A stretch of 24,000 nucleotides of DNA, taken from the NCBI RefSeq assembly GCF_001971585.1, contig NZ_CP019323.1:400053-424052 (forward strand), in the 5' to 3' direction. The DNA comes from Companilactobacillus allii (GTDB taxonomy: Bacteria; Bacillota; Bacilli; Lactobacillales; Lactobacillaceae). The notes under the pieces are model-generated. The model had not been told where the DNA came from. It did no database searches and was given only the letters and a program-made list of their open reading frames with translations. The translations under genes were made by a program, and so were the position numbers. Positions 3,013 through 23,404 of this stretch are shown here, piece by piece; within the stretch, counting starts at the first letter, position 1; each line of letters begins with the position of its first letter.

Positions 3013-4485
<1,473 letters not shown>

Positions 4486-7522: not shown

Positions 7523-7532
7523 GTTTTTACCT

Positions 7533-8744
7533 CTAATTTTGAGTTTTTATATTATTGGATAATTTATCAATTTCTTTATATTCCAATTTCGAATAATTAA
7601 TACCTGCTACAGCTGAAAAAATGAACAATACTGCAAAGATAACTAAACCGGCTTCGAAAGTGAAACCAGGCTCTAAATTGTTAAATAATGACGAAATTCC
7701 TTTAGCAAAGTAAGGCGAAATTAATGTACCAACATTTGCACAAGTCATAACTACAGACGTTGAAAAAGCAACTTGACTCGCAGATGTCATTCTATTGATA
7801 TTAGCAATCATTGATGACATAAAGACTGATACAGAAATACCTAACAAAATAACTCCAATTGCACTTACAAATAAAGAATGCGAAATACTTAATAGTAAAA
7901 ATGATACTGTTGAAAATCCTAATCCGAATGTACTTGTGTATTTAAACCAATGCTTTTGAATATACATAAACAAGAATCCACCCGCAACCATTGCAAAGGC
8001 CATTAATCCAAGCAAGGTACTTGCATCAGACGCCGTTCCATAGTTTCTTGAAACAACTAACAAAGCAAACTTAATTGAAATGAAGGCAAATGTTGCATTG
8101 AAAAGGAAAGCAAATGTAGCTAATAACCAAATTTTTCCATCAACTTTTTTACTGCTCTTACTTTGACCACTATCAGTTACTGTTTCTGAAACCATTCCAA
8201 TTGTCTTTGGTACATAAATACCAACTAAAAGAATAATTGGTAGAACAATTAAATAGACCCAATATGACATTTGCCAACCACCATTCAATAAAACACCAGC
8301 TGCAAAAGTCATGATAAACATTCCTAATCCTTGACAAACACTTGATAATCCAAGCATTTTTTGTTGATCACGTCCCTTATATAATTGAATAATTAAAGAT
8401 TGTGAGAAAGACATCAGTAGACCAGTACCCAACCCTAGGACAACTCTTGACACAAGAATCAATGAGAAATTCATTGTAATTGCTGGAACAATTCCACCGA
8501 TAAATATCAAAACCAACCCAGACATAATAGTTCTTTTGATGCCGATAAAATCTGCCACAATATTACTAATGGGTGTAAAAATAATAATTCCCAATGACGG
8601 AATTGTCATCAATAACTCAATAGTTGTAGGACTAATATTCGAAAAGCTCTTCATCATTAATGGTATGGTAGCAGCCGTTGCACCTGTACTAACCGTAAAG
8701 ACAGACAATATCAAAATTGCAAAACGTGTCATTATTTTTTTCAT
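7533..8744 (-). CDS. MFS-type permease (12 TM)
   Basis: 403-aa highly hydrophobic ORF with about 12 predicted helices split by a central hydrophilic loop (SETVTDSGQSKSSKKVDGK). It starts 2 nt after the GH78 stop. Confidence 0.8.
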   Translation of the reverse strand: MKKIMTRFAILILSVFTVSTGATAATIPLMMKSFSNISPTTIELLMTIPSLGIIIFTPISNIVADFIGIKRTIMSGLVLIFIGGIVPAITMNFSLILVSRVVLGLGTGLLMSFSQSLIIQLYKGRDQQKMLGLSSVCQGLGMFIMTFAAGVLLNGGWQMSYWVYLIVLPIILLVGIYVPKTIGMVSETVTDSGQSKSSKKVDGKIWLLATFAFLFNATFAFISIKFALLVVSRNYGTASDASTLLGLMAFAMVAGGFLFMYIQKHWFKYTSTFGLGFSTVSFLLLSISHSLFVSAIGVILLGISVSVFMSSMIANINRMTSASQVAFSTSVVMTCANVGTLISPYFAKGISSLFNNLEPGFTFEAGLVIFAVLFIFSAVAGINYSKLEYKEIDKLSNNIKTQN

Positions 8745-8746
8745 AA

Positions 8747-11548
8747 TTACTTATCCTTTTTTATTTGTTCAATTTTATAATCCATGAACATCTGATTAAT
8801 TCGGTCAATCTGTGTTTGAGTTAATGGTGAAAAACCAATGCCTTTCATTTCTTGACTCAACTGCAAAATCGAATAATCTTTGAAATGTTCCATATTGCCA
8901 GGTAAATTGAGAAAACCCCAGAATGGAACCAGTTTATTTAACTTATTCGTAATATCTTTATTTCCAATGAACTTAGCCAATGCTGTATGGATGTCAAAGT
9001 TGTTCACCAACGGAGTTGTGGTTTGATAACTAATTTCATGGTGGCCATTTGTTAAAATATCTCCGTTCTCATGCTGCACCCCATCGGCTAGCCATGTTTT
9101 GGTCTTGGGTAATTCAACCACGGCAGACTGATTATAAGGTAAGTCCAGTATTACTTTGACTACACTACCTGAACTAGATATCTTCCAAGCCACTCTGACT
9201 TGTCCAGTAGTTAATTGTGTATAGCCTTCCATAGAACTAAACTTCGGACTAATTTCTGGTTTGATGACCAGTTGGTTGCCTTGTTTAATTCCTAATAAAT
9301 ATTCATAAGCCCACTGCATCACGGCACCAGTCGAATAATGATTTAATGAATTCATCCCATTATCATTAATTTTTCCATCTGGGTTAACCGAATCCCAACG
9401 TTCCCAAATAGTTGTAGCACCTAATTTGACCTGATAAAGCCAGCTAGGGTAATCCTCATTTAAAAACAATTGTACGGCTAGTTCATTTTGATTATTTTGT
9501 GATAATGCTGGTAGTAATGCCGGAGTTCCAACAAAACCAGTTGTTAAATGATTTCGATCTTTCTCAATTCTTTCTACCAATTTATCTGCTAATTTTCTTT
9601 GATCACCATGTGGGTATAGTCGTAGATTTAAACATATGGATAAAGCAGTTTGAGTATCTGTAATTAAACGACCACTTCCGGTAAAGAACTCAGTAATAAA
9701 GGATTCTTTTATCTTTTCTGATAGTAATTGATAATATTCATGTTCTCGTTTGGCATTTAAAACTTCAGCACTGTCAGCAACTATTTTGACCGATTGATAA
9801 TAATAAGCACTGGCAATTAATTCATCTGGAGTTTTGCCTTTCAAATGCATAATATCTTCAGTATCTAAAGCCAACCAATCTCCTAGTTGATCTGCATCTA
9901 ACCATAGAAATTCATTACGTGTTTGCTTAGCATAGTCATGAACCCAATCGACCCATGACATCATTGCTCCAAAATTCTGAAGTAAAACCGATTTGTCCTT
10001 GGTCCTGAGATAACTTATCCATGGAATAATAGTTGCAACATCACTCCAAACGGCTTTTCCACCATCGTCACCGTCAACAGCTGGTACGTAAAGTGGAACT
10101 TTTCCATTGTTGATGCTCTGCTCAACCGCTATATCATAAGAATATTTACGATTAAATTGGTAAGTATCCATGTTGTAACTAGCCGTTTTAGCAAAAATTG
10201 CTGCATCTCCGGTCCAACCTAATCGTTCATCACGTTGTGAACAGTCTGTCGGAACATCCATAAAATTACTCCGTTGCCCCCATTGAACATTACTGAATAA
10301 TTGATTAACTAACTTATTATCTGATTTGATATTGCCAATTGATTCCATATCTGAATACAAGGCTCTGGCTTGAAAATTATCTACGTCAAAATCATTAGGA
10401 AAACCAATTAGTTTGACATATCTAAATCCAAAATAACTAAAATGTGGCCTTACTGGATGTACTTGTCCATCACTGACATAAGTAAAGGTGGCTCGAGCAG
10501 ATCTTAAATTACCTCGATATAATTCACCATTTTGAATGATTTCACCATACTCTAATTCAACCTTGGTACCTTTAGGTAGTGTATTTTTGAAAGTAACCCA
10601 ACCAGCCATATTCTGACCAAAATCTAGTACAACTCCATTACTTGGTGTGATGATTTTTTCTTTAACCCTAAATGATTCATGTTCTTTGATCGGTAAACTG
10701 AGGCGATCTTTTAAATGCTTGCTTGGTTGCTCAAAAGTCTTTAATAGTAATTTGTTTGCTAGGACTGTTTGATCAAGATCTTCACCATAATAAATTCCCG
10801 AATGAGTAATCTGCGAAGATTGAGCCTGCCAAGAATCATCCGTGCCAATATTGTGTTCAACTCCAGCATTATCGCTATAATCAATTTCAGCATTCGCCAT
10901 CAAGGCATTACCATATTGGTTTGCCTTGCCACCATGCTCCTTGATACCTAATTTTCCTCGATACCAACCATCACCTAAACTAATCCTTATCGTATGCACC
11001 CCTGGTGATTGAAGGAACTTAGTAATATCATGAGTCGCAATTTGAACGTAATAATTATAATTAGTAAAACCTGGTGCTAAATATTCAGTTCCAATTTTTT
11101 GATCATCAATATAAACTTCATAAACACCTAAACCACTAACATATAGTCTTCCTTGAGAAACTTCCTTAGGTACATTTATTTGTTTAATTAAATTTAGTCC
11201 ATGAATACTGGCATCATCAGTTCCAATCCATTGACTATTGTTAAACCCCGTCATCAATCCTGTTTCAAAAAACGCGCTTTTTGAAATTATTTCTTGGGTA
11301 TCTTTTAATTCAAATTTCACATTATATCTGGTTTTACTTTGTAATTGAAAAACTGGTTTAAAAATTAAATCTTCGGCAATTTGCCATTCTGTTTTAAAAA
11401 CAATTTCATTATCAGTAGTGATTATTAATCTTTTTTTCAAATTGTCGGGATATTTATCTGCATGAATCGTCCCATTAATGAATAGATCATTTAATTCAAA
11501 TCCAATAGGATTGTTCATGTGGTTTATTCTTATTTGTTCAATCTCCAA
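8747..11548 (-). CDS. GH78 alpha-L-rhamnosidase (intracellular)
   Basis: The roughly 933-938 aa ORF has an N-terminus (EIEQIRINHMNNPIGFEL) typical of bacterial GH78 enzymes. Size and internal motifs such as DCSQRDERLGWTGDA and WERWDS also fit. The ORF track starts at the TTG at 11563. I prefer the TTG at 11548, which has GGGGGAA 6 nt upstream. No signal peptide. Confidence 0.88.
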   Translation of the reverse strand: MEIEQIRINHMNNPIGFELNDLFINGTIHADKYPDNLKKRLIITTDNEIVFKTEWQIAEDLIFKPVFQLQSKTRYNVKFELKDTQEIISKSAFFETGLMTGFNNSQWIGTDDASIHGLNLIKQINVPKEVSQGRLYVSGLGVYEVYIDDQKIGTEYLAPGFTNYNYYVQIATHDITKFLQSPGVHTIRISLGDGWYRGKLGIKEHGGKANQYGNALMANAEIDYSDNAGVEHNIGTDDSWQAQSSQITHSGIYYGEDLDQTVLANKLLLKTFEQPSKHLKDRLSLPIKEHESFRVKEKIITPSNGVVLDFGQNMAGWVTFKNTLPKGTKVELEYGEIIQNGELYRGNLRSARATFTYVSDGQVHPVRPHFSYFGFRYVKLIGFPNDFDVDNFQARALYSDMESIGNIKSDNKLVNQLFSNVQWGQRSNFMDVPTDCSQRDERLGWTGDAAIFAKTASYNMDTYQFNRKYSYDIAVEQSINNGKVPLYVPAVDGDDGGKAVWSDVATIIPWISYLRTKDKSVLLQNFGAMMSWVDWVHDYAKQTRNEFLWLDADQLGDWLALDTEDIMHLKGKTPDELIASAYYYQSVKIVADSAEVLNAKREHEYYQLLSEKIKESFITEFFTGSGRLITDTQTALSICLNLRLYPHGDQRKLADKLVERIEKDRNHLTTGFVGTPALLPALSQNNQNELAVQLFLNEDYPSWLYQVKLGATTIWERWDSVNPDGKINDNGMNSLNHYSTGAVMQWAYEYLLGIKQGNQLVIKPEISPKFSSMEGYTQLTTGQVRVAWKISSSGSVVKVILDLPYNQSAVVELPKTKTWLADGVQHENGDILTNGHHEISYQTTTPLVNNFDIHTALAKFIGNKDITNKLNKLVPFWGFLNLPGNMEHFKDYSILQLSQEMKGIGFSPLTQTQIDRINQMFMDYKIEQIKKDK

Positions 11549-11572
11549 ATCATATTCCCCCAATCCATTTTA

Positions 11573-11664: not shown

Positions 11665-11696
11665 AAAAAAAACCTCATTCTGTTTGGAATGAGGTT
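11665..11696 (-). terminator. Rho-independent terminator ending the yhf-like operon
   Basis: On the minus strand, AACCTCATTC, loop CAAACA, GAATGAGGTT, followed by TTTTTTTT. It lies about 73 nt downstream of the stop at 11769. Confidence 0.85.
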
Positions 11697-11768: not shown

Positions 11769-12998
11769 TTATTCATCTAGATCAGTACCATCAATAATTC
11801 TATGTAAAAAACTTTTGCCATTTTCTGGTGGTTCAATATCAAAGTATTCTGCACCAGTAGCCCCAACATCGGATAATGTTGATCGATCCCCGACGTACTT
11901 ATTATGTGTGCCTTCCTTATAAATCATTAATGGTGTACGTTCTCTTGTATGCAAAGTGGAACCTATCGTTGGATCATCCCCATGATCTGCCATAACAATT
12001 AAAATATCATCACCTGTATATAAGGGTAGGACTTCATTTAGCTTTTTATCAGCTTTTTCAAGCACATCTGCATAACTCAACGGATCTTCAGCATGACCGG
12101 CTAAATCCGTTTCTTGAATATTCATAAACAGTAATCCATTTTTCATATTCTTTGATTGTTCAATAAACTTATCAAACAAATAATTGGTATCAACACCAGG
12201 AAATTTTCTATCCGTATTTACATTAATAATATCGGATGTTTTCCCTATCAAAGATACATCAATATTATTTTCATGCAACATAGTCGGTAATTGTACTTTA
12301 GGGTCAATTCCGTATCCTAGATGTATAACATGATAATCTTTATTATATACACCGGATTCTGGAGCTGACACACCAACATATTTTCCATGTTCTATTTTAC
12401 GTGCCTTTAAAATATTTTTAAGATTTACCCCTCGACCTCCAAAGGCAATAACACGTGAAACTTTAACAACACTTCGAACTGAATCACCTAACCTAGTTAT
12501 CTCATCGAATGACATCTCATCTAAAGCTGCCGTCACGTTATATACTTGACCCGGATCTGCTTCCAAGTTATCACCTATAGTTGCACAATTATTTACTAAT
12601 AATAATTGATATCCCGGATCGCCATATCTCTCAATTTCAAAACCATCTTTTTTCACTTGATTTTCAATGGTATCAATAACCTCATTAAATGGCTGTAATA
12701 ATGGCATCTTAGGTTTAGTCCCCATAATTTCTTGGTGGGCCAAATATGAATCTGCACCATGATGCATCAAATTAGAGGTACCCCAGTTTGCAGTATTAGA
12801 GAATTTTTTATCTCCTCTTTCTTCACCAATAGAATTCATTAATCCCAATTTTACTAGATTGGGGATTTGGATCTGTGGAACTGCCTTAATAATATTTAAG
12901 GCAGTGTTTGAACCAATATCATCTGGACGAACATTAGGAACATCGTCCATTGCACCTACTCCAAAACTATCTAACACAATTATTCCAAATTTACCCAT
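11769..12998 (-). CDS. yhfW: YhfW-like phosphopentomutase-family (alkaline-phosphatase superfamily) metalloenzyme
   Basis: The preferred start is the ATG at 12998, with GGGAG 8 nt upstream and 1 nt after the upstream TGA, giving 409 aa. The track start at 13049 would overlap the previous gene by 50 nt. The DeoB-type core is present as IIVLDSFGVGAMDD, GADSYLAHQEIMG (compare E. coli DeoB GKDTPSGHWEIAG), QETDLAGHAEDP and MADHGDDPT. Confidence 0.85.
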   Translation of the reverse strand: MGKFGIIVLDSFGVGAMDDVPNVRPDDIGSNTALNIIKAVPQIQIPNLVKLGLMNSIGEERGDKKFSNTANWGTSNLMHHGADSYLAHQEIMGTKPKMPLLQPFNEVIDTIENQVKKDGFEIERYGDPGYQLLLVNNCATIGDNLEADPGQVYNVTAALDEMSFDEITRLGDSVRSVVKVSRVIAFGGRGVNLKNILKARKIEHGKYVGVSAPESGVYNKDYHVIHLGYGIDPKVQLPTMLHENNIDVSLIGKTSDIINVNTDRKFPGVDTNYLFDKFIEQSKNMKNGLLFMNIQETDLAGHAEDPLSYADVLEKADKKLNEVLPLYTGDDILIVMADHGDDPTIGSTLHTRERTPLMIYKEGTHNKYVGDRSTLSDVGATGAEYFDIEPPENGKSFLHRIIDGTDLDE

Positions 12999-12999
12999 A

Positions 13000-14166
13000 T
13001 CATTTAACTCCCTTCGGTAATTCTCTACCTTGACTATCATATAAACCAACCAGTCTTGGATTGCTTGTGTGTAGTCCTCTAACTAATGCAATTGTGCTTC
13101 TGGTTACGAACATTTGAGTTCTATATGCCATTACAACTGGTAAACCAGATTTAAATTCTTTATTTAGTTCCAAATAGTAATCAATACTCGAATTATCTAG
13201 TGGAAAAACTTCTGCATGCTCAATCTCATTACCATTCTTTACTATTACATTCTTCAAATGACCTCTTCTGTAATATCCGCCACCAAAAACAAAGCTATGG
13301 TTTTTAAAACTATGTGATATTTCACTTACATAACAATATGCTGGCTTTTCTGGCAATTTTTTTACAGCATGCATAGGTGTGGTCCCAGTAATGGAATGCC
13401 CTGGCTCTCCTTCTGTACCACCCAGTTCCTTAATTAATTTAAGCGATTTAGTAGCGGTTGCTGAGGGTAAACTAACGACAGAACAATTTAGTTCATGCTT
13501 ATTAAAAATATCCTTAGAAGCCTTTATCGTTGTCATATTAGAGGTCTTCTCATACTCACATTTTTTTTCATCAAAAAGAATAGCGGGAAATGTCGTGATA
13601 CCGACAATCTCAAGATTCGATAATTGTTTCAATTTCTCTAACTGATTGTCCAATTGCTTCAAAGTAAAACCACCAACTTGACCAGGATATATATCATCTT
13701 TATCATCTTGGATTTTTAAAATAATTTTTTGAACTTTATTACTGGATCTTGCAGCCTCATTCAAATCAAAGGCATTTTCATACGAGAATATTGTGAAATA
13801 CTTAGTTCCGTAATCAATAATCTTTTTGAGTAACATTTTTGGTACCTGTACTAAATGACCAACATTTCCTAATTTCAAATTATTGTTCATAAATACTTCA
13901 GCTTCTCTATAATCAACAACGACAGCATTTTCTATCCCCGCTGATTCAATTTCTTTTGCTATTATTGGATTTCTGCCTAATTGTTTTGTCATATAAAGCA
14001 ATTCGATTCCATACTTTTTTGCTTCGACAACCATTTTTTTTGTGTTTTCACTTATCATGTCTAGATCTATGACATATGTGTCTGGTAATATTTGACCAGT
14101 TTTATGTAAATCAAAGGCAAAATCAATTAATTCCGGATTTAATTCTTCAAGTTTTTTTAAAAACAT
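13000..14166 (-). CDS. yhfX: YhfX-like putative PLP enzyme of the alanine-racemase-fold (fold type III) family
   Basis: 388 aa (E. coli YhfX is about 387 aa) with a GAGGTGG RBS. The start ATG overlaps the upstream TAA (TAATG). Assignment rests on size, position beside the yhfW-like gene and overall resemblance to the predicted amino-acid racemase family. It is the least motif-supported call in the cluster. Confidence 0.65.
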   Translation of the reverse strand: MFLKKLEELNPELIDFAFDLHKTGQILPDTYVIDLDMISENTKKMVVEAKKYGIELLYMTKQLGRNPIIAKEIESAGIENAVVVDYREAEVFMNNNLKLGNVGHLVQVPKMLLKKIIDYGTKYFTIFSYENAFDLNEAARSSNKVQKIILKIQDDKDDIYPGQVGGFTLKQLDNQLEKLKQLSNLEIVGITTFPAILFDEKKCEYEKTSNMTTIKASKDIFNKHELNCSVVSLPSATATKSLKLIKELGGTEGEPGHSITGTTPMHAVKKLPEKPAYCYVSEISHSFKNHSFVFGGGYYRRGHLKNVIVKNGNEIEHAEVFPLDNSSIDYYLELNKEFKSGLPVVMAYRTQMFVTRSTIALVRGLHTSNPRLVGLYDSQGRELPKGVK

Positions 14167-15263
14167 TATCCCACCACCTCATTAATACTACTTTTAAGAA
14201 TCCGAATTATAGTATCAGCACCACAACGATATGGATTAATTCTTATAGTGGTTTTTAATAGATTGGGATCGTACTCTTTAAATGTTCCTGAAACTCTGTA
14301 GAACATTGGTACAATTTCATATTTAGATTCAGCACCCACTGGATTAGGTGCTGCACCAAGAGAACTTGTATATTTCAATACCTCTTCAGCTATTGGTTTT
14401 TTAAATTCTACTAATAAAACCTTAGACTGGGCATTGGCAATATATGCATAAGAAATTTCTGATATTTCTTTATTATTAAGTCGTTGAACTAACTCATTAA
14501 CAACATTTGCTTGATTTGCTAATGCAACCGGAGCATATGTCAATCCACGTAATACATCCAGAGCCTCATGTCCCTGTACCTGTGAACCACCAGAATAATT
14601 CTCTTTTTTAAGTAATTCTATTTTCTCCTTATCACCCACAATACATCCGATACCTTCAGGGCCTAATAGCTTAAAGGTTGAAAAGCAGCTTAGATTAGCA
14701 CCTAATTCGACACCAATTTTTTTTACTTTCATTACTGCATAATTGTCATCTGTAATTATTGGAATATTAGGATACTTATTTTTAAAAAACGAAATAACTT
14801 TTTCTATTGAATATGAGTCTTCTGGCTGTTGTCTTGTATATTGAATTAAAATCGCCGAAATATTATTGGGTAATATTTGATTCTCAATATCGTTATAATC
14901 TATTTCAATGGTTTTTATTCCCATACTCTCTATTGATACTTTTGTAGTTGGATATACTGGCGCTCTATGAACAAGTACTGTATCTCCAGGATGTAGTACT
15001 GAATGAAGTGCCAATCTAATTGCCGCTGTTCCCGATCCTCTAACTAGCATTGCCGCATCTGTTCCAAAAAAACTAGCTAAAATTTCTTCCACTTTCTTTG
15101 TATATCTTGGTTGGTTTAACCCAGGAACAACACCTAGATCACCTCGGCTTAGCATTTCATTTCCCATGAAATAGCGTGTCATAATATCAACTAATTTAAA
15201 TTGTTTTTTTAACGCTTCCTCTATGGATATGCTCTCTAGTGGGTATGTTTTAAATTTAGGCAT
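14166..15263 (-). CDS. yhfS: YhfS-like PLP-dependent enzyme, SelA/DgaE-like (fold type I)
   Basis: The preferred start is the ATG at 15263 (MPKFKTYPLESI, paralleling the E. coli YhfS N-terminus). The track start at 15275 is four codons upstream. The PLP-lysine box NLSCFSTFKLLGPEGIGCIVGDKE closely parallels SelA [24 protein letters not shown]. It overlaps the php stop by a few nt. Confidence 0.8.
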   Translation of the reverse strand: MPKFKTYPLESISIEEALKKQFKLVDIMTRYFMGNEMLSRGDLGVVPGLNQPRYTKKVEEILASFFGTDAAMLVRGSGTAAIRLALHSVLHPGDTVLVHRAPVYPTTKVSIESMGIKTIEIDYNDIENQILPNNISAILIQYTRQQPEDSYSIEKVISFFKNKYPNIPIITDDNYAVMKVKKIGVELGANLSCFSTFKLLGPEGIGCIVGDKEKIELLKKENYSGGSQVQGHEALDVLRGLTYAPVALANQANVVNELVQRLNNKEISEISYAYIANAQSKVLLVEFKKPIAEEVLKYTSSLGAAPNPVGAESKYEIVPMFYRVSGTFKEYDPNLLKTTIRINPYRCGADTIIRILKSSINEVVG

Positions 15264-16140
15264 TAAAATCACCATAGATTCTTTGTGGATTATCTATTAA
15301 CATCTTATTAATAAATTCTTCTGAAACATTGTTCTTTTTTAATTCGGGAATAAACTTATCTAATAAATATGAATAACCATTACCACCATTTTCTTTGAGA
15401 TGTGATTTTCTTGTAATATCCATAGACATAACGACTTGGTCCGTATACCCTGCTTTTTCAATATCTTTAAGCATCTTGGTTCTCACTGTATCTGATAAAT
15501 AGTTATTTTTACCAATTGTGTCAAATTCGACATTTATTCCAGCTTTTAGCATATCGATAACATAGTCAGAGTTTGCGGATAGATCAACATGTCCAATGAC
15601 AATTTTACTTAAATCAGCTTGTTTTCTAGCAAAATAATTAACTTGTTCATGTCCTAACGTCCCAATAGATGTATGCGTACTAATTGGACATCCAGTTTCC
15701 TTCTGAGCAATAACAGCCGCGTTGAATACCTTTTCTTCACCTATGGTCCATTTGTTCTGAGTCGTGGCAATTTCACCAATAACACCGGCTTTTACATTTG
15801 TACCCTTAATTCCTTTCTGAATATCCTCTATCATACCTTCTGCCAATTGATTTACTGACAATCTAAAAACTTCAACTGGCAGAAAAGCATCTTGGTAAAA
15901 CCCTGTAGATTGAACAATATTTATTTTGGATTTCTCAGCCACAGTTTGCGCGTATGGAATATTTCTTCCCATACCTCTATTGCTCATATCAATAACATTC
16001 CTTACACCTTTTACATAGAGATCCTTAAATTCTTGAATAACCAATTCTTGGGAATCAAGATGACAGTCCTCATTGTGTTTAACTTCTGACAAATCAATTG
16101 GAATATGCTCATGTGAATAAACCATACCAGGTACTAACAT
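15256..16140 (-). CDS. php: Phosphotriesterase homology protein (amidohydrolase superfamily, Php/YhfV)
   Basis: 294 aa with an AAGAGGA RBS. The protein is collinear with E. coli Php throughout. All metal ligands are present: YSHEHIPIDLS (HxH), VIGEIAT (Glu replacing the carbamyl-Lys), ISTHTS, IGHVDLS and VMSMDITRKSHL. Confidence 0.93.
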   Translation of the reverse strand: MLVPGMVYSHEHIPIDLSEVKHNEDCHLDSQELVIQEFKDLYVKGVRNVIDMSNRGMGRNIPYAQTVAEKSKINIVQSTGFYQDAFLPVEVFRLSVNQLAEGMIEDIQKGIKGTNVKAGVIGEIATTQNKWTIGEEKVFNAAVIAQKETGCPISTHTSIGTLGHEQVNYFARKQADLSKIVIGHVDLSANSDYVIDMLKAGINVEFDTIGKNNYLSDTVRTKMLKDIEKAGYTDQVVMSMDITRKSHLKENGGNGYSYLLDKFIPELKKNNVSEEFINKMLIDNPQRIYGDFNA

Positions 16141-16165
16141 TTATAAAATCCTCTTTCTGTTCAAA

Positions 16166-17458
16166 TTAAAATAACATTATTAATCTCAATATATTCAATA
16201 AAACTCCCAAAACAATTGCCGCAATTGGCCCAACTGCCATGTCTACTAAAGGTTTCTTGGCTTTCTTATTTAAAAGCCAAAAACCTATTACCCAAAAATA
16301 TCCCAAATTGGGTGCCATCTTATTACATGCCAATGCAGCACCAATAAGTAATGCTATCGCTATTGTGTCTTGTAACGATGTTCTGATATGTTCTCCCATA
16401 TCTCTTAATCCAGGGAATTTATCCAATCCTTTAGCAGTAGCTGAAAGAGCTTGAACCTCAATCCACATCCAAACAAATCCAGCTAAAAACGCAAGAATTG
16501 GTTGTCCTTTTAATAGCAAACCAATAACAAAGATAATGGTTGTTCCAGCCATACCATAAACGCCAGTTACAATAGCAGTTGAAAATACCAACGGAATAAA
16601 TCCAATAGCACGTGCAAATGTCGCAATAGCCGCTTCCATAACTTGGTTTTTAACCAATAATTGTTGTGGTAATACATCAACAGCGATTATCAACATACTT
16701 GATGAAGCAGTAATCAAACCTCCCATAATGGACAACCAGATCCAATTACTCTTAATTCGACCCACACGTTTTGAAAATACGTTCACCAGTCCAGCGTTTG
16801 AATTACCATCACCCTTGATTTGTGCAGCAAAGTAAATCATCGCTATCATTGCAACTAATAAAGACATGCCAATTGCATTCAATGTAACCGTCATACCATC
16901 AACTTTGAATGTACCGAATTTTGTGGCTAAAAGATAAGCTAAAAATGTTAGGCCAAAAGTAATCATTCCCTTTTTAGGCCCATGTTGACTTGCAACCGAA
17001 AGTGCTGGAAACGCACAAAAAGCTAAAAGGATCGGACCACCTAATAATGAAAGTGCTGGCAAGAAATTAAATGGCAACATCTTAAATAATGAAACGATTG
17101 TGGAAAGTCCAAATAACAATCCAATACCATAAATGGCACCAACTACACCTGCCATTGCTGTACCCCATTTAGTATCCGGGGTCCATGTACCAATAATATC
17201 TGCTGCAAGCAAAATACTATGTGCAACCAGGATTGTTGATCCAATTGAAACTGGTATACCAAAGCCTATAATCAGTCCAAAACTAACTGCAAAACTAGTA
17301 GCTGCTAGTTCCTTCCTGGTTATTTTTCCTTCCAGATATTCGGGCATAATCGGTCTTAATCCATCGTTAAAAACAGCAATACCACGGTTAGCCAAAATAG
17401 ACCCAACACCTCCAACCGCGGCAATTAATACATAGTTAATCAACGTAGTAACGTTCAT
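16166..17458 (-). CDS. yhfT: YhfT-like polytopic inner-membrane protein (putative transporter)
   Basis: 430 aa (E. coli YhfT is 434 aa) with at least 10 hydrophobic helices and an AAGGATGG RBS. It lies directly downstream of the yhfU-like gene, as in E. coli. Confidence 0.8.
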   Translation of the reverse strand: MNVTTLINYVLIAAVGGVGSILANRGIAVFNDGLRPIMPEYLEGKITRKELAATSFAVSFGLIIGFGIPVSIGSTILVAHSILLAADIIGTWTPDTKWGTAMAGVVGAIYGIGLLFGLSTIVSLFKMLPFNFLPALSLLGGPILLAFCAFPALSVASQHGPKKGMITFGLTFLAYLLATKFGTFKVDGMTVTLNAIGMSLLVAMIAMIYFAAQIKGDGNSNAGLVNVFSKRVGRIKSNWIWLSIMGGLITASSSMLIIAVDVLPQQLLVKNQVMEAAIATFARAIGFIPLVFSTAIVTGVYGMAGTTIIFVIGLLLKGQPILAFLAGFVWMWIEVQALSATAKGLDKFPGLRDMGEHIRTSLQDTIAIALLIGAALACNKMAPNLGYFWVIGFWLLNKKAKKPLVDMAVGPIAAIVLGVLLNILRLIMLF

Positions 17459-17483
17459 TTTTATACCATCCTTTTTTTATTTT

Positions 17484-17507
17484 CAATATACTGTATAATG
17501 TATATTG
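17484..17507. promoter_or_regulatory. Palindromic operator-like element CAATATA-N10-TATATTG (copy 1, yhfU-yhfT gap)
   Basis: This lies in the only sizeable intergenic gap inside the operon (72 bp). Here the palindrome extends to 11-bp arms, TTTCAATATAC (17481-17491) and GTATATTGAAA (17500-17510). An identical 7-N10-7 core recurs at 19193-19216. Confidence 0.45.
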
Positions 17508-17530
17508 AAAGATAATTAAATATAAAAAAA

Positions 17531-17896
17531 TTATTTCACTAGATATTTCACTAAAATGGGTAACACTGTGTCTTTTGTATTTATAGTGAATCCAAATGCA
17601 ACTTTACCTTTACCGTTAATTTCTTCTGCAATTTCTTCCTCAGATAATACCTTGGATGGAGATGCGACTGTAACAGTATGAGTTGATCCTAGTAATGCTG
17701 TTGCCATTGCAAGAGCTCCACCTGCACCAGTTTCACAAGCACCAATATAATAATCTGCTTCTCCATTTTTAATTGCCATTGCTGCATCCAAATCATTTTT
17801 GATAAAAATATCAACCTCCTTATCACCAATCAATTTTACTAGTGTTTTTTTTATATCATCTTTCCCCATTTGCCCACCAATAACAATTCTAATCAT
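17531..17896 (-). CDS. yhfU: YhfU-like small soluble protein (DUF2620)
   Basis: 121 aa (E. coli YhfU is about 117 aa) with a strong AAGGAGGAA RBS. The start overlaps the yhfY-like stop by 8 nt (ATGATTAG). It carries the conserved Cys/Gly-rich loop DYYIGACETGAGGALAMA. Confidence 0.8.
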   Translation of the reverse strand: MIRIVIGGQMGKDDIKKTLVKLIGDKEVDIFIKNDLDAAMAIKNGEADYYIGACETGAGGALAMATALLGSTHTVTVASPSKVLSEEEIAEEINGKGKVAFGFTINTKDTVLPILVKYLVK

Positions 17897-18248
17897 TTTG
17901 ATTCCTCCTTAATATATTTAAAACATGTAATAGTATATATTGTGTTTCATCTTCATTAAACTTTACTGGTGCTTTAAATTTTAAATCATTCCAGACTGAT
18001 ATGGCAATTTTATACTCTGGTTTACCACTTATTTGTTTCCACATTTCATCTGGCATTCTATCAACAAGTTCATTATCTAGTACCCTACCAATTGCGACCG
18101 ATAAATGGATCAATAACATTTCATTATCATTACTGTAATAATTTGTTTCAAAATAATCATCAACATCAACTAAAAATTCAAAGGAATCTGAATCTAATTT
18201 TCCCATTTCCTTTAAAAGATTTAACTTTTTCTCTGTAGTTTCTTCCAT
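17889..18248 (-). CDS. yhfY: YhfY-like stand-alone PRD-domain protein
   Basis: The preferred start is the ATG at 18248, 8 nt after GGAGG, giving 119 aa (E. coli YhfY is 120 aa). The track start is a GTG at 18257. It has two PRD-type helices with conserved His residues (LLIHLSVAIGR and YILLHVLNILRR). There is no RNA-binding or DNA-binding domain. Confidence 0.78.
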   Translation of the reverse strand: MEETTEKKLNLLKEMGKLDSDSFEFLVDVDDYFETNYYSNDNEMLLIHLSVAIGRVLDNELVDRMPDEMWKQISGKPEYKIAISVWNDLKFKAPVKFNEDETQYILLHVLNILRRNQND

Positions 18249-18261
18249 ATATATCACCTCC

Positions 18262-19176
18262 TCAATATTCAGGTAGAATCTCCCCAGATATCACCTCTTT
18301 TTGAACAAGAGTGATTTGATTATCATCCGCGTATCTTTGTACAATTTCTTTAATAAACGAATTGTTCTTTTTACAAAGTAATGCTGCACGAGACGACTTA
18401 TTTACCAAATCGCTATCAATTGAATCGTAAGATACTGGGTAATTCTTTTCCTCCACCTCGTCTCTATTCCAGATAGCAGCGTCAATTTCCCCATTCTCAA
18501 TTCTTTGTACAATTTGATTGTATGGCGTTTCAATTAATTGGACATTATGATTTTTTACAATTTCTTGTGTCAAAATTTTATAATCTATCGAATGGGAATC
18601 CACACCAATACTCATTCCGTCATAAATAAAGTTATTTTTACCTTTTTTATGTACAATTACATGTTCTGAGACATAAGTTTTTTGTGGAAATAAGGATATT
18701 AGATCCACATCGTTATTCTTCAATAAATAATCTGCAGTTAATCCAGAAGTAACTATAAAATCATATCGATTACTCTTTAAACCATTTAATCTATTTATTG
18801 ATCCGTTAACATAGGCTAGATTAAGATTAAGCTTTTTATCTTCAAAGGCCCTATAAAATCCTGTACTGAGTCCTTCATAATACTTGGTATAGGGTAACGG
18901 CATAGCACAAACAATATTTCTATCGTCCAAATAATTAAGTAATTTGTCTTGATTTTGATCAACCAAATACGTACCCATATGCCCCTTGGATAATGTCTTA
19001 ATTGCCCCATCATTTTTTAAAGTTTCCAGAGCACTTTGCATGGTTCCTCGTGAGGTATTTGTTTCCAGACATAATTCATCTACAGTAGGTACTTTATCCC
19101 CAATTCCTAATGTAAAAAATTTCTTTGCTAAATAAATCAAAGCAATACCTTTTTTTTGATATTGTGTTTCCTTCAT
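18262..19176 (-). CDS. yhfZ: YhfZ-like transcriptional regulator (N-terminal GntR-like wHTH plus C-terminal ligand-binding domain)
   Basis: 304 aa (E. coli YhfZ is 301 aa). It has an N-terminal HTH (VPTVDELCLETNTSRGTMQSALETLKNDGAIKTLSKGHMGTYLV). It is the first gene of the cluster, as in E. coli. Confidence 0.78.
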   Translation of the reverse strand: MKETQYQKKGIALIYLAKKFFTLGIGDKVPTVDELCLETNTSRGTMQSALETLKNDGAIKTLSKGHMGTYLVDQNQDKLLNYLDDRNIVCAMPLPYTKYYEGLSTGFYRAFEDKKLNLNLAYVNGSINRLNGLKSNRYDFIVTSGLTADYLLKNNDVDLISLFPQKTYVSEHVIVHKKGKNNFIYDGMSIGVDSHSIDYKILTQEIVKNHNVQLIETPYNQIVQRIENGEIDAAIWNRDEVEEKNYPVSYDSIDSDLVNKSSRAALLCKKNNSFIKEIVQRYADDNQITLVQKEVISGEILPEY

Positions 19177-19192
19177 TATTGCATCTCTTTTC

Positions 19193-19216
19193 CAATATAC
19201 AGTTTTTAATATATTG
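19193..19216. promoter_or_regulatory. Palindromic operator-like element CAATATA-N10-TATATTG (copy 2, yhfZ leader)
   Basis: Same 7-N10-7 core as 17484-17507. It lies between the candidate promoter (-10 at 19231-19236) and the yhfZ-like ATG at 19176, roughly +8 to +31 of the predicted transcript. Confidence 0.45.
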
Positions 19217-19230
19217 CTTTCAACGACATA

Positions 19231-19259
19231 AGTGTATGCCCTTACATCACTGTTGTCAA
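19231..19259 (-). promoter_or_regulatory. Putative sigma-A promoter of the yhf-like operon
   Basis: On the minus strand, a perfect -35 TTGACA (19259-19254), an exact 17-nt spacer, then a -10 TACACT (19236-19231). This leaves a leader of about 48 nt. Confidence 0.45.
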
Positions 19260-19435: not shown

Positions 19436-20239
19436 TTATCTTTTCAATATATTCTCTGACTGTACCCACTTACTGATATTTCCCTTATGTTTTTTCACAT
19501 ATTTAGAATAAATAATATCCAACTGAATGAGCACAGGAATCTGAGGTGAAATATTTCCCAAAGCTTCGTCTGCTGAAAAGTTCGCTGCATAGACTGTTTC
19601 CTCACAATAATCAACAATTGGAGAATCCTCATTCGAAGTAATCATTAAAAACTTAGCTCCTTTTGTTCTTCCCACTTTAACAGCTTCCAACATATCCTTG
19701 TCCTGACCGCGAAGGGATGCAATTAGTACCAAATCTCCTTTTTGTAAAGAACTAGCCGATAAAGATATAGAGTGTTGGTCACTATAAACCTGTATCACTT
19801 TACCAAATCTTGCAAATTTGAATTCAAAATCATTACCAGCAAATGAGTTAAATCCTAATCCCCAAAACATGATAATCCTTGTAGCATCGATAAGATCACA
19901 GAAGTTCTCTACTGCTTGACTACGATATGCGGCATCACTTCTCGTGGCCAGAGCATGATAACTAGCGGTAACTGGGGTGGATATATTACTAGCATCCTCA
20001 GTTTGATCATTTAAAGAAAGACTATATAAAAAGATCAGTTCTTTGAAGTTATTTAATCCCAATTTCTTACAAAATCTTGTAATTGATGGCGGTGAAACCG
20101 AAATTTTTTTTGCTAATTCACTAATACTTAATACTTCTTGTTTACTGATAAAATAATCAGCAATATTTTGTTCTACCGATGTAAAACTATTTCGATGGGA
20201 TTCAATTAATAAGAATAAGTCGTCAACCTTGTTTTCCAT
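19436..20239 (-). CDS. MurR/RpiR-family transcriptional regulator (HTH_6 plus SIS domain)
   Basis: 267 aa. It has an N-terminal HTH (ISELAKKISVSPPSITRFCKKLGLNNFKEL) and a C-terminal SIS-type sugar-phosphate-binding region (IIMFWGLGFNSFAGNDF ... LVLIASLRGQDKD). It starts 16 nt after the GH38 stop. Confidence 0.88.
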   Translation of the reverse strand: MENKVDDLFLLIESHRNSFTSVEQNIADYFISKQEVLSISELAKKISVSPPSITRFCKKLGLNNFKELIFLYSLSLNDQTEDASNISTPVTASYHALATRSDAAYRSQAVENFCDLIDATRIIMFWGLGFNSFAGNDFEFKFARFGKVIQVYSDQHSISLSASSLQKGDLVLIASLRGQDKDMLEAVKVGRTKGAKFLMITSNEDSPIVDYCEETVYAANFSADEALGNISPQIPVLIQLDIIYSKYVKKHKGNISKWVQSENILKR

Positions 20240-20255
20240 ACAGTTACCTTCAATC

Positions 20256-22877
20256 TTATTTATTAATTTTTATCGTTTTGACCTCACCAGGCTTAAAATC
20301 ACCACATGAAATATTTTTCATTTTGCCCATGCTTCTTTTTAGTCTTCCAACAAAGTCAGTTTCACTAATAAAATAGAAGTCATTTAATAATACCAAATCA
20401 TTTCCTCCACATGAATGCTTACTTGGATTATAAACCCTTAAGAGCCATCCTGACTCGTCTTGACTCTCAGTTAAGCTACTAAAAATAAGATTCTTATTTT
20501 TAATTTCTAGAAACGGATTACTTTCAATCTGCTTGTCGAGTGGCTGCATTACAAAATACTTCAGAGTATTAGTAAATAAATTTAGATTTTGTTCCTGATA
20601 AAACGGCTGACTTATCGCATATATTTGGAAATTCTTCATCATTTCAGCAGGCATGAATCTATCATTTAATTGCAACGCAAATTTAAAATGAAGTTTCTCT
20701 ATTAATTGACTATCAGGAGTAGGTATATAGGTAAATTGATTACCTGATGCGACACCTGGTCTCCTGATCAAATCTGGTCTACCTAAAAATCCAACAGAAC
20801 GGAATAACGTAAGTGCAATCTGATTATAATTTTTACCGATAATTTGATACTCTTTATTACCTTTAGCCATAACAGTCCAGCTAGAGTCATCATTATGAAC
20901 ATTTACGTAATGGAGCATAGGGAAAATTGCTGTCGGCTCTTCCTTCCAGCCGAGTTCTTTCCAATCCCTTAAATGAGGATCTACTACTGAACGTCTAATA
21001 TATCCAAACCCAGTATCTGCATATGAATATTGTGATTCAATATCAGAATTAAAAATTGCACGCATGCGATGATCTTTAACGTCATTCTCAATATCTAGAT
21101 GAAACTGAATTTGATTATCTCTATCTAGAGTTAATTCTAGTTCATAATTAACGATTCCAGAATTGGTTTTGTTGGCTCTTTCGTCTAAGTCTTTAGGTAA
21201 ATTCCATTGACCAGTAAGTATCATTTTTTGACCAACTTTACCGTTTTGAACTTTAACTGTGGCATCATTGTAATTCAAATAAATTATATTATCTTTATAC
21301 GCTGGTGAGTAGTCGTAAGTGTCACCTTCATCTCCGCCATCTTCAAAGATCAAAAGTTTTTCAAATTCTTTATTATTTTTTAAATCCAGTAATGTTAAAT
21401 CGCCGTTTGAATATTTAATTCTAAGATCACCATTTGAAATTGAATTAGATTCTGTATGGCCTATTACCTCAGCATTACCCATTTTGGGAACTAATTTTAA
21501 CTTTTTCCACTGCAATGATGGCAACGTTATTTTAGCCTGACAATGAAAAATATAATAGTAATCTGTCTCTTTATACTGAGATTCATCTCTTTTTATCTGG
21601 CCATTATATTTCTTCTCAATATCTAAGATATCCACCAATATCTTTTTATCATTATCATATAAATCAAAGTCTTTATTCTTTAATGATACGTTGAATTTTA
21701 CTATTTTTTCAGTGTTAAAAGGTAGTGTATTAAAAAAGGTTAAATCATTGGGCTCCTTATTCTTTTGAGATTCAGAAATTTTTCTAGTTAAATAATCAAC
21801 TGCAGAGTACGATAGTTGGTCTGCCTCTTGTAATCGATCCAAAATGATTTTATTAGTTTTATCACTATTACATCCCCCAGCACTATCGTGGGCATGATTT
21901 CTTACAATTAATTTCCATATTTTATTTAATAATGATTTTTTATATTCTATTCCCACTCTATCAGCCATGACCATTAAAGGTTCCAGTTGGTAGATCATTC
22001 TACGTTCTACTTTGTCATTTAAATACTTTTGATCATATCGTGAAGAATATATAGATCGATGTATTTTGGATACTGAACTATTAATGAACTCACCAGAAAC
22101 ATTATCCAAAGCATTTCTTTTCATATTCATTTTAATGAATAAGGCAGGATAATTACTTTCAAAAAGTTGGATATCTTTATCTTTCAAAGCGTCATTATAG
22201 AATTTGATTCTATCTTTTAAATTATAATCAACATATCTTTGATCTCCACCCACTGGCAGGGCAATATCATCAATCGTTGTACCACTAATAACTGTTTTCA
22301 TCGTGGAGTCTACATTGTCGTCGTCAATTAAACCAACACCAACAAAATATCCATCTTTGATATTCAACGTAGTTACATTTGATCCATCTTCAGAATTCCA
22401 AACAAATTCACGATTCCTCGTTTTATCTTCTGACAAACCCCTCCAAAATAATGCATTAGTAATACCCATACCATTATAGATTTTAGGCATATCAGCAGCT
22501 TGACCAAAAGAATCAGGTAAATATCCTATTCTTTGACTTCCACCTAATTTATCAGCCATCTCCATCCCTAAGGACAAATTTCTTACAATTGATTCACCGG
22601 TAACAATCATCTCATCTGTCTGCGTATACCATGGCCCAATAAATAAACGGCCGTTTCGTACCCACTTAGATAATTCTTCTTTTTTTTCAGGATAGGCATC
22701 CAAGTAGTCATCCAAAATACTCATTTGACCATCCAACAGATAATAATCAACAATCTGATCTTCCAGTGCTTTAAAGACTTCATCCATATGATATACAAAC
22801 TGAATTATTGCCTCATTCCTAGTAAAATACCATTCAAAATCCCAATGTGTATGTTGAATAACATGAATATTTTTCAT
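20256..22877 (-). CDS. GH38 alpha-mannosidase (MngB-like, intracellular)
   Basis: 873 aa (E. coli MngB is 877 aa) with a GAGGAG RBS. It has the N-terminal GH38 metal-site motif IHVIQHTHWDFEWYFT and the downstream YLPDSFGQ motif. There is no signal peptide. Fructose-family PTS genes lie immediately upstream. Confidence 0.9.
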   Translation of the reverse strand: MKNIHVIQHTHWDFEWYFTRNEAIIQFVYHMDEVFKALEDQIVDYYLLDGQMSILDDYLDAYPEKKEELSKWVRNGRLFIGPWYTQTDEMIVTGESIVRNLSLGMEMADKLGGSQRIGYLPDSFGQAADMPKIYNGMGITNALFWRGLSEDKTRNREFVWNSEDGSNVTTLNIKDGYFVGVGLIDDDNVDSTMKTVISGTTIDDIALPVGGDQRYVDYNLKDRIKFYNDALKDKDIQLFESNYPALFIKMNMKRNALDNVSGEFINSSVSKIHRSIYSSRYDQKYLNDKVERRMIYQLEPLMVMADRVGIEYKKSLLNKIWKLIVRNHAHDSAGGCNSDKTNKIILDRLQEADQLSYSAVDYLTRKISESQKNKEPNDLTFFNTLPFNTEKIVKFNVSLKNKDFDLYDNDKKILVDILDIEKKYNGQIKRDESQYKETDYYYIFHCQAKITLPSLQWKKLKLVPKMGNAEVIGHTESNSISNGDLRIKYSNGDLTLLDLKNNKEFEKLLIFEDGGDEGDTYDYSPAYKDNIIYLNYNDATVKVQNGKVGQKMILTGQWNLPKDLDERANKTNSGIVNYELELTLDRDNQIQFHLDIENDVKDHRMRAIFNSDIESQYSYADTGFGYIRRSVVDPHLRDWKELGWKEEPTAIFPMLHYVNVHNDDSSWTVMAKGNKEYQIIGKNYNQIALTLFRSVGFLGRPDLIRRPGVASGNQFTYIPTPDSQLIEKLHFKFALQLNDRFMPAEMMKNFQIYAISQPFYQEQNLNLFTNTLKYFVMQPLDKQIESNPFLEIKNKNLIFSSLTESQDESGWLLRVYNPSKHSCGGNDLVLLNDFYFISETDFVGRLKRSMGKMKNISCGDFKPGEVKTIKINK

Positions 22878-22896
22878 CGTCTTTTCTCCTCACTAT

Positions 22897-22928
22897 TAAA
22901 AAAATGGGAAGACACGTCCTTCCCATTT
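22897..22928 (-). terminator. Intrinsic terminator or attenuator hairpin between PTS EIIA and GH38
   Basis: On the minus strand, AAATGGGAAG, 7-nt loop GACGTGT, CTTCCCATTT, followed by TTTTTT. The GH38 RBS and ATG follow within about 20 nt. Confidence 0.7.
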
Positions 22929-22936
22929 ATCATTTT

Positions 22937-23383
22937 CTATATACCTTCAATCGTTTCTGTCAAAATTTTGGAATCATTATTTTTTAAAACATTTTCTCTA
23001 AATTCATCATCCATTAATTTCCTAGCAATTTTGCTCAACAATTTTAAATGTTCCTTAGCTCCATCTTTAGGAATAGTTAAAAAGAATCCAACTTGAATTG
23101 GTTCACCATCTAGTGCTTCCCAATCGATCTTATTATCGAATTTAACTAGGAACAATCCTGGTTCAAGTACACTTTCATCATTACTATGTGGAATTGCTAT
23201 ACCATTCTTAAATCCAGTAGTTGCCTCAATTTCACGAGCCTTCAATCCTTGATAAAAAACTTCATAGCTATTGACATATCCACAATTCTCGATAAATTTT
23301 GCAACATTTAAAAATGCTTCATCCTGTGTTTTGCTTTCATGGTCATAAAAGATATGTTCTTGATTAAAAATACTAGTTTCCAT
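22937..23383 (-). CDS. PTS EIIA component, fructose/mannitol family (PTS_EIIA_2)
   Basis: About 148 aa. The ATG at 23383 has GAGGT 6 nt upstream, and the track TTG at 23386 is one codon earlier. The active-site region is GFKNGIAIPHS (phospho-His). Confidence 0.88.
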   Translation of the reverse strand: METSIFNQEHIFYDHESKTQDEAFLNVAKFIENCGYVNSYEVFYQGLKAREIEATTGFKNGIAIPHSNDESVLEPGLFLVKFDNKIDWEALDGEPIQVGFFLTIPKDGAKEHLKLLSKIARKLMDDEFRENVLKNNDSKILTETIEGI

Positions 23384-23404
23384 CAAAATACCTCATTCTA
23401 TAAA

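Follow-up and report, generated by a model that had tools for sequence, protein, structure and literature searches.

The yhf/php gene cluster of Companilactobacillus allii: orthology with the uncharacterised Escherichia coli cluster and a possible role in amino-sugar salvage

The stretch of Companilactobacillus allii DNA analysed here (24,000 nucleotides, referred to as the window) carries on its minus strand, at 11769-19176, eight adjacent and co-directional open reading frames (ORFs) that form one yhf/php block. This block is almost certainly the orthologue of the yhfZ-yhfS cluster of Escherichia coli. Much more tentatively, at a probability of roughly 40%, it is read as an operon for the phosphotransferase system (PTS)-responsive uptake and breakdown of a substituted amino sugar, ending in glucosamine-6-phosphate. 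The genes and the candidate expression signals are as follows.

19194..19259, minus strand: two overlapping sigma-70-like promoter candidates 5' of yhfZ (consensus scan)
18262..19176, minus strand: yhfZ-like gene; GntR-type helix-turn-helix plus YhfZ_C domain resembling periplasmic binding proteins (NF041241, PF14502, PF14503)
17889..18248, minus strand: yhfY-like gene, PRD domain only (PF00874); the ORF reaches a GTG at 18257
17531..17896, minus strand: yhfU-like gene (DUF2620, PF10941); predicted RpiB-type fold
16166..17458, minus strand: yhfT-like gene for a polytopic membrane protein, presumed transporter (PF10797)
15256..16140, minus strand: php-like gene; binuclear-metal hydrolase of the PTE family, Glu-bridged (PF02126)
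14166..15263, minus strand: yhfS-like gene; fold-type I pyridoxal phosphate (PLP) enzyme (PF22475); the ORF reaches 15275
13000..14166, minus strand: yhfX-like gene; fold-type III PLP enzyme, alanine-racemase-like N-domain plus YhfX_C (PF21279, PF01168)
11769..12998, minus strand: yhfW-like gene; phosphomutase of the DeoB / alkaline-phosphatase superfamily (NF009049); the ORF reaches a TTG at 13049
11671..11696, minus strand (hairpin on the plus strand too): intrinsic-terminator-like hairpin and T-run (consensus scan only)

All eight families were found by Pfam and NCBIfam profile searches. For comparison, the E. coli K-12 region was fetched (yhfZ-yhfY-yhfX-yhfW-php-yhfU-yhfT-yhfS, b3383-b3376, adjoining frlABCDR). 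In BLASTP searches against this K-12 set the eight window proteins matched strictly one to one (23-53% identity, E 3e-8 to 1e-137), which is far beyond chance. A first-pass annotation of this DNA had already equated the eight consecutive minus-strand genes with the E. coli set one for one, and both kinds of search agree with it. It had also stated that the cluster lacks an established substrate. No published substrate or function was indeed found in the full-text literature (paywalled work could exist), and the RefSeq and NCBIfam names (2026) for the cluster proteins are still generic, every gene having already been named by annotation pipelines. Literature matches to 'b3379' concerned a strain name and not the gene. 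Solved structures were found for three cluster proteins, namely Php (1BF6/4LEF), YhfS (4J8L) and YhfX (4KBX). In E. coli K-12 (L001:5911-10784), the fructoselysine operon frlABCDR lies convergent with the cluster at a distance of about 150 nt; this proximity may be coincidental, or it may point to related substrates among the glycated amino acids.

A YhfT scan with one genome per species yielded at least 303 species genomes with a relative. The comparative sample comprised the best-scoring 80 of these loci with 10 kb flanks and is biased towards Firmicutes; about 90 related loci were compared overall. Nearly all complete loci among the 80 contained all eight families. Gene orders are given below by the last letter of each name, with P for Php. 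Order U-T-P-S-Z-Y-X-W was found in 26 of the 80 loci and the window order, Z-Y-U-T-P-S-X-W, in 24; the latter is one of the two commonest and is typical of Firmicutes, and the Bacillaceae order is Z-Y-U-T-P-S-W-X. The window copy, previously described as shuffled, is an ordinary member of a common cluster and is 'shuffled' only relative to E. coli. The proposal that ZY, UT and XW move as modules was borne out across the sample: yhfU is directly 5' of yhfT in every locus, and ZY and XW (or WX) travel as pairs. On one contig (L092:4891-12806) the genes form two groups, W-X-Y-Z and U-T-P-S, that diverge from a common 440-nt intergenic region, which confirms that U-T-P-S and Z-Y-X-W are separable transcription units.

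Gene content is less strictly kept than had been supposed. A Vibrio locus is without yhfS, a Xenorhabdus locus is without yhfW, a variant described below is without Php and YhfZ, and many loci have added genes. On a B. thuringiensis plasmid copy neither yhfZ nor yhfW is annotated. The cluster was present in 5062 of 5426 complete E. coli genomes (~93%) and was further seen in B. halodurans, on a Cetobacterium megaplasmid (Fusobacteriota), on a plasmid of the spirochaete Entomospira and in a Thermotogota metagenome-assembled genome. Three apparent fusions were encountered among database proteins, of PTE with DUF2620 (P0373, 413 aa), of DUF2620 with PRD (P0424, 267 aa) and of DUF2620 with a YhfT fragment (P0423, 294 aa); these could be true fusions or artefacts of frameshifts or gene calling.

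The block encodes four enzymes with intact active sites, of which Php is a hydrolase, YhfW a phosphomutase, YhfX racemase-like and YhfS lyase- or aminotransferase-like. Php matched the PTE family PF02126 with E 1e-87, well above the gathering threshold of Pfam; against the structures of E. coli Php (1BF6/4LEF) it scored 288 bits. As claimed earlier, all metal ligands are in place (H10, H12, E123, H156, H184 and D241; bridging Glu type, as in E. coli Php). Among orthologues, K211, Y214, R220, R244 and Y256 are invariant. The score against the NCBIfam equivalog NF007373 was 337 bits, below the cut-off of 486. Matches to the phospho-furanose lactonase model NF045706 and to Lmo2620 (3PNZ) reached 97 and 106 bits, respectively. 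Lmo2620 is said to have been characterised by Xiang et al. in 2012 as a phospho-sugar lactonase. PTER, another Glu-bridged PTE-family enzyme, is an N-acetyltaurine amidohydrolase (PMC11374699).

YhfW scored 585 bits (cut-off 254) against NF009049 / PRK12383, the model for YhfW-type phosphopentomutases, and remained below the cut-offs of both equivalogs for true DeoB (TIGR01696, 137 bits with cut-off 341; NF003766, 171 bits with cut-off 256). Its alignment with the B. cereus phosphopentomutase 3M8W is full-length but poor in the central cap domain. The motifs D, D..GH, DH and H, conserved with 3M8W, are presumably the metal ligands; together with the Ser/Thr phospho-acceptor they mark YhfW as a DeoB-like phosphomutase. 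The Ser of GADS is placed opposite the Thr of GKDT, so that the DeoB-like core and the residue exchange noted in the first pass are recovered by the 3M8W alignment. The Ser is not diagnostic, however. In the nucleophile column of 76 orthologues, 57 have Ser and 19 have Thr; E. coli YhfW has Thr as well, and Ser-for-Thr was rejected as a hallmark of the family in favour of a lineage variant.

For YhfS, E 1.5e-41 was obtained against YhfS-like_C PF22475 and 398 bits against the E. coli YhfS structure 4J8L. K202 (in FSTFKLLGPEG) is invariant; in an alignment with a Cys/Met-family enzyme it falls on the TK lysine, and it is taken to be the PLP lysine. A SelA/DgaE-type box had been proposed for this protein. 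There is a local match to SelA PF03841 around the PLP lysine (residues 189-226 only), but at 20.0 bits it falls short of the gathering score of 22.8, and TIGR00474 gave 21.8 bits with a cut-off of 267.9; the likeness is thus local and does not extend to the family level. YhfX matched YhfX-like_C PF21279 (E 9e-34), PF01168 (E 3e-16) and the E. coli YhfX structure 4KBX (314 bits). Its K61 is invariant, and ornithine racemase is weakly matched.

The DUF2620-like protein and the membrane protein of the first-pass annotation were recovered as YhfU (PF10941, E 2e-40) and YhfT (PF10797, E 1e-152); a predicted fold for YhfU, not assigned before, is added here. The YhfU sequence of the window has a 100% identical counterpart among Companilactobacillus allii proteins, whereas looking up the exact YhfT sequence gave no match. 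An AlphaFold2 model of YhfU from 63 sequences had a mean predicted local distance difference test (pLDDT) score of 93.9. In a Foldseek search of the PDB, the top 8 matches were all RpiB, the type-B ribose-5-phosphate isomerases, with template modelling (TM) scores of 0.63-0.72. When the YhfU family profile was aligned with E. coli RpiB using hhalign (112 columns), C54 and T56 fell on RpiB C66 and T68, which are the catalytic base and its partner. Both residues lie in an invariant Gly-rich loop at a helix N-terminus, C54-x-T56-G-x-G-G, whose RpiB counterpart is C66-G-T68-G-x-G. The alignment has a gap in YhfU opposite the RpiB active-site residues D9/H10 and stops at RpiB residue 128, before the C-terminal Arg/His that bind phosphate in the active site. 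The match to Pfam LacAB_rpiB PF02502 was sub-threshold (14 bits, gathering score 24.7, E 0.05). YhfU is thus confidently predicted to adopt the RpiB fold and keeps the Cys/Thr loop, but it is not a standard RpiB. YhfU could be a Cys-dependent isomerase/epimerase or, because of its invariant pairing with YhfT, a Cys-phospho relay. Co-linear matches of YhfU to the SFCGS / EF_0830 family were sub-threshold (E 0.15 and 0.22), and a homology of DUF2620 with that family is treated as a lead and not as a finding. Among the matches scanned from a search of 1.84 billion representatives with the DUF2620 profile, only DUF2620 proteins were seen.

YhfT was modelled with AlphaFold2 from 47 sequences (pLDDT 84.4). 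Foldseek returned nothing significant from the PDB (best E 0.02, TM score at most 0.27) and no EIIC, and no Pfam EIIC family was matched even at E 10; YhfT was therefore rejected as a PTS EIIC. As judged from the model, its membrane fold may be undescribed. Eight charged residues are invariant (D32, R35, D87, R231, R283, E334, R352 and R359), including arginines that would be suited to a negatively charged substrate. An internal repeat, sought by aligning the N-terminal with the C-terminal half (hhalign), was not convincing (E 0.01, probability 4%).

The regulators were assigned at different levels. YhfZ was identified over its full length by the equivalog NF041241 YhfZ_full (348.5 bits, cut-off 260) and is 31% identical to E. 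coli YhfZ; its sensor domain weakly matches SBP_bac_3 and is in this respect amino-acid-binding-protein-like (E 4e-4). YhfY (about 120 aa, 23% identity to E. coli YhfY) matched PF00874 with E 2e-8 and no further domain, in particular no CAT RNA-binding or DNA-binding output domain, as expected from its earlier description as a PRD-only protein. Among 60 orthologues H51, R58, E104 and H111 are invariant. The two phosphorylation-site histidines of a PRD are about 60 residues apart, and H51 and H111 are separated by 60. YhfY thus has the two conserved histidines of a BglG/LicT-type PRD, which are taken as phosphorylation sites.

These features bear on a different view of uptake, in which YhfU and YhfT would constitute an unrecognised PTS-type permease, Cys54 being phosphorylated by HPr or EIIA and the substrate being taken up and phosphorylated by YhfT. 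The invariant U-T adjacency, the invariant Cys54 in its glycine-rich loop at a helix N-terminus and the two conserved histidines of YhfY are in keeping with this, as are the weak co-linear matches of YhfU to SFCGS/EF_0830 of a PRD-linked operon. Such a permease would account both for the PRD protein and for the missing kinase, no recurrent kinase having been found beside the cluster in the fetched loci. (A PTS-dependent Dha kinase beside the E. gallinarum cluster was rejected as a partner, being not recurrent.) Yet the top 50 PDB matches of the YhfU model contained RpiB isomerases and no EIIB despite the glycine-rich loop with its invariant Cys, YhfT as modelled resembles neither EIIC nor any other solved transporter, the SFCGS matches lie under every threshold, and a variant operon (see below) has its own kinase, AnmK, and in one case an Opp-type ATP-binding cassette (ABC) importer. 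The permease is therefore considered possible but unlikely; it concerns the uptake step and would be compatible with an amino-sugar conjugate as well as with a DgaE-type pathway.

Several extra genes recur at yhf loci. An amidase-signature protein of about 340 aa is encoded in 45 of the 80 loci (L002-L081) and in two further ones (L086:17060-18097 and L094:10345-11376). Only the core of the family is retained (Pfam Amidase 34 bits, GSSSG...GGGS). Its gene (A) occupies four placements, U-T-A-P-S, U-T-P-A-S, X-W-A and divergent upstream, and is absent from the window, other Lactobacillaceae, Bacillaceae and E. coli K-12. A true NagB (TIGR00502, 293-314 bits, cut-off 236.9) is encoded directly after the last cluster gene and on the same strand in 14 of the 80 loci, which span Bacillaceae, Clostridium, Lachnospiraceae, Acidaminococcales and Thermotogota; it follows W or X according to the local order. 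The 10-kb flanks of all loci were free of NagA and ROK kinase genes. In 10 of the 80 loci a gene for a PF00144 serine hydrolase abuts the cluster in the same orientation, at three positions; this protein is most similar to E. coli PBP4B, with a score of 238-240 bits that does not reach the cut-off of 385. The PBP4B gene lies beside murQP in E. coli, and its product is a homologue of the B. subtilis MurNAc-L-Ala amidase AmiE.

A divergent variant was found on metagenome contigs, of which L089 and L091 are independent; in these two, overlapping genes join it to the PBP4B-like hydrolase gene, anmK and murQ. L089 (1-10308; 69% GC) carries PF00144-anmK-murQ-Y-U-T-S-X-W-MttB-like with overlapping genes and is without Php and YhfZ. 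L091 (289-8946) carries OppA-OppB-OppC-GNAT-PF00144-anmK-murQ-Y-U and its sequence ends after the next gene, and L090 (80-7169), whose sequence ends just 5' of Y, carries Y-U-T-S-X-W-MttB-like. AnmK and MurQ of the variant scored 478 and 397 bits. The MttB-like (trimethylamine-methyltransferase-like) gene ends the cluster in L089 and L090.

The recurrent partners all come from amino-sugar and peptidoglycan turnover, which is why the cluster is linked here to amino sugars and the cell wall, and the occurrence of NagB without NagA is the reason for placing the end point at glucosamine-6-phosphate. The substrate would be a 2-amino-2-deoxy-hexose with an acyl, aminoacyl, ester or lactone-type substituent, for which the cell wall is a possible source. 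YhfT would import the compound, with YhfU working together with it. Php would then strip off the substituent in a NagA-like role, helped elsewhere by the amidase-signature protein or the PBP4B/AmiE-like hydrolase; the relationship of Php to PTER and the phospho-sugar lactonases suggests such an acyl, ester or lactone remover acting on an anionic amino sugar. A shift of phosphate by YhfW would give glucosamine-6-phosphate for deamination by NagB, which is encoded elsewhere in the Companilactobacillus allii genome and in the operon in many other species. The freed amino-acid-like part would be racemised by YhfX and then deaminated or transaminated by YhfS. YhfZ would sense the substrate, and YhfY would tie expression to the phosphorylation state of the PTS, as suggested by the invariance of H51 and H111.

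Several points weigh against this reading. No substrate test of the cluster was found in the literature, and no NagB, amidase, PBP4B-like gene or anmK/murQ was found near the window cluster. NagB is linked at just 14 of 80 loci, and a second product is possible; the sample, being the best-scoring 80 of at least 303 loci, leans towards Firmicutes. The anmK-murQ variant without Php and YhfZ has been seen on just two metagenome contigs. What two PLP enzymes would do in the degradation of an amino sugar has no precedent, and with no kinase at hand, YhfT unlike EIIC and YhfU unlike known EIIB folds, the reading does not account for where the phosphate comes from. Finally, the Vibrio locus without S and the Xenorhabdus locus without W indicate that the respective steps are dispensable in some hosts.

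The chemistry proposed in the first-pass annotation is a DgaE-type route. In it Php would open the lactone of a phosphorylated amino-sugar acid, YhfW would shift the phosphate, YhfX would epimerise and YhfS would deaminate, giving a 2-keto-3-deoxy sugar-acid phosphate. The sub-threshold resemblance of the PLP-lysine region of YhfS to SelA and TIGR00474 and the phospho-furanose lactonases among the relatives of Php (NF045706 and Lmo2620) would fit, and a parallel orphan operon of E. faecium pairs a DgaE-family lyase with KDGP aldolase (PMC11934601). Against this stand the score of YhfS below the SelA gathering threshold, the much closer relationship of Php to E. coli Php than to the lactonases, and the nature of the recurring enzyme, NagB, whose substrate is an amino aldose phosphate and not a sugar acid. 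Neither an aldolase nor any enzyme family beyond those named was seen among the families recurring beside the 80 loci, as judged by general clustering with no dedicated aldolase search. The window cluster itself, in agreement with the earlier statement, contains no kinase, aldolase or recognisable EII by profile and structure searches. As NagB recurs and an aldolase does not, the DgaE-type route is less likely than the route to glucosamine-6-phosphate, and it is rated improbable; a phosphorylated amino sugar does fit the gene neighbourhoods, and it is the acid/lactone deamination that is not favoured.

Alternatively, the substrate might be an amino-acid derivative (a stem-peptide fragment, D-amino acid, lactam or N-acyl amino acid) that is hydrolysed by Php with or without the amidase, racemised by YhfX and degraded by YhfS, leaving YhfW and YhfU to act on a side product. 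This would make good use of the two PLP enzymes, one of them with its weak match to ornithine racemase, and of the amino-acid-binding-protein-like sensor of YhfZ; the amidase-signature and PBP4B/D-aminopeptidase-like neighbours would suit a peptide or amide, and PTER-type PTE enzymes cleave N-acetyl amino compounds. It leaves no role for the near-universal phosphomutase or the RpiB-fold protein, however, and both the NagB linkage and the anmK-murQ fusion unexplained, so that we consider it quite unlikely. A bolder form of the amino-sugar reading is likewise given little credence: YhfT-YhfU would be a new uptake module sensed by the PRD-only YhfY, perhaps shared distantly with SFCGS/EF_0830 operons, and the whole operon would be an undescribed salvage route for a glucosamine conjugate. 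The conjugate, derived from the cell wall or from glycation, would be handled by a PTE-family deacylase, a DeoB-like mutase and two PLP enzymes. If this were true, gut and food bacteria including E. coli would salvage a glucosamine conjugate by an undescribed route.

In Companilactobacillus allii the block forms a single operon, being contiguous and co-directional with a promoter-like site 5' and a terminator-like hairpin 3'. Promoter candidate 1 is TTGACA-17-TACACT (19259-19231) and candidate 2 is TTGAAA-18-TATATT (19223-19194). Both sit in the 259 nt that separate yhfZ from the rpiR-like gene; as the regional number of such sites is not above that of shuffled controls, they are consensus matches only. 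The terminator-like hairpin lies 73 nt past the yhfW stop codon. Starts with the best ribosome-binding sites were preferred over the longest ORFs, and the likely true starts are ATG 18248 for yhfY (with GAGGAGG as ribosome-binding site), ATG 15263 for yhfS and ATG 12998 for yhfW. The seven gene junctions measure -8, -8, -1, +1, +13, +25 and +72 nt; translational coupling, which had been claimed throughout, is therefore expected for most of the genes and not for all. No Rfam riboswitch or RNA leader was matched at gathering score across the whole window. The GC content of the block equals that of its flanks.

The region directly 5' of the cluster (19436-23947, minus strand) encodes an RpiR regulator, fructose-type PTS EIIA/EIIC and a GH38 alpha-mannosidase that is MngB-like but scores 753 bits where the cut-off is 1138. 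This GH38/PTS/RpiR group was rejected as a functional partner and its adjacency is treated as coincidental, because GH38 occurs in none of the 80 loci; it was met again only in the unrelated contig L092 (1-2131, GH38 and PTS EIIABC). Directly 3' (5515-11563), genes for an Abhydrolase_3 esterase, a transporter of the MFS type and a GH78 alpha-L-rhamnosidase of 938 aa diverge from that of an AraC regulator, and the group looks like a rhamnoside-utilisation unit. Further away, positions 2723-5394 (minus strand) hold an ROK-family gene, then a GH1 glycosidase and then, with 4-nt overlap, a 97-aa MtN3/SWEET-type (SemiSWEET-like) half-transporter, which could be a small unit for sugar uptake and hydrolysis. 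At 365-2626 (plus strand) there is a DUF969-DUF979-Pcp trio, i.e. two membrane proteins followed by a pyroglutamyl-peptidase.

The yhf/php genes are one of the better-conserved E. coli blocks without an assigned function. An intact unit in a food-associated lactobacillus is ordinary when taken alone, as many Firmicutes carry the cluster, and the window on its own contributes little; what is of value is the cross-locus comparison, which renders the question of function more testable. With NagB linked without NagA, and with the amidase, PBP4B/AmiE-like and anmK-murQ links, this comparison narrows the search to glucosamine-yielding conjugates. New leads are a fold and a candidate catalytic loop for DUF2620, and a YhfT without a solved structural relative.

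Among known systems, the nearest is the E. coli cluster, itself functionally uncharacterised. It has the same eight families, co-directional and tightly packed, with the same active-site residues. It differs from the window in gene order (Z-Y-X-W-P-U-T-S versus Z-Y-U-T-P-S-X-W), in the YhfW nucleophile (Thr versus Ser) and in its neighbours (frlABCDR versus rpiR/GH38/PTS and GH78 genes).

Single proteins have characterised relatives. Mammalian PTER and the phospho-sugar lactonases share with Php the PTE-family TIM barrel, and PTER also the Glu-bridged binuclear centre and the basic residues for an anionic substrate tail; the window Php scores only ~106-119 bits against them, compared with 288 for E. 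coli Php. RpiB/LacAB proteins resemble YhfU in predicted fold, strand order (TM score ~0.7) and the Cys-x-Thr-Gly-x-Gly loop after strand 3, whereas they have about 150 aa, compared with 121 for YhfU, and YhfU invariably comes with a membrane protein partner.

At the level of pathways, nag/mur catabolism (NagA-NagB; AnmK-MurQ; AmiE/PBP4B) is connected through the NagB, PBP4B/AmiE-like and anmK-murQ genes linked at other yhf loci. None of its genes adjoins the window cluster, however, NagA is never linked, and the known routes have no counterpart of Php, the DeoB-like mutase or the two PLP enzymes. The other systems compared were Salmonella dga, with the D-glucosaminate-6-phosphate ammonia-lyase DgaE and the aldolase DgaF, and the SFCGS operon EF_0829-0839. 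The related orphan operon of E. faecium has the order SFCGS-DUF4312-DUF4311-DUF4310-amidohydrolase-DgaE-like-KDGP aldolase (PMC11934601). Shared with the yhf cluster are a PRD-linked regulator, a small glycine-rich Cys protein with one or more membrane proteins, a metal amidohydrolase and a SelA/DgaE-like PLP enzyme. In contrast, no aldolase was found in the yhf cluster, which also has no mannose-type PTS and a YhfS below the SelA threshold, and it has in addition a phosphomutase and a fold-type III PLP enzyme.

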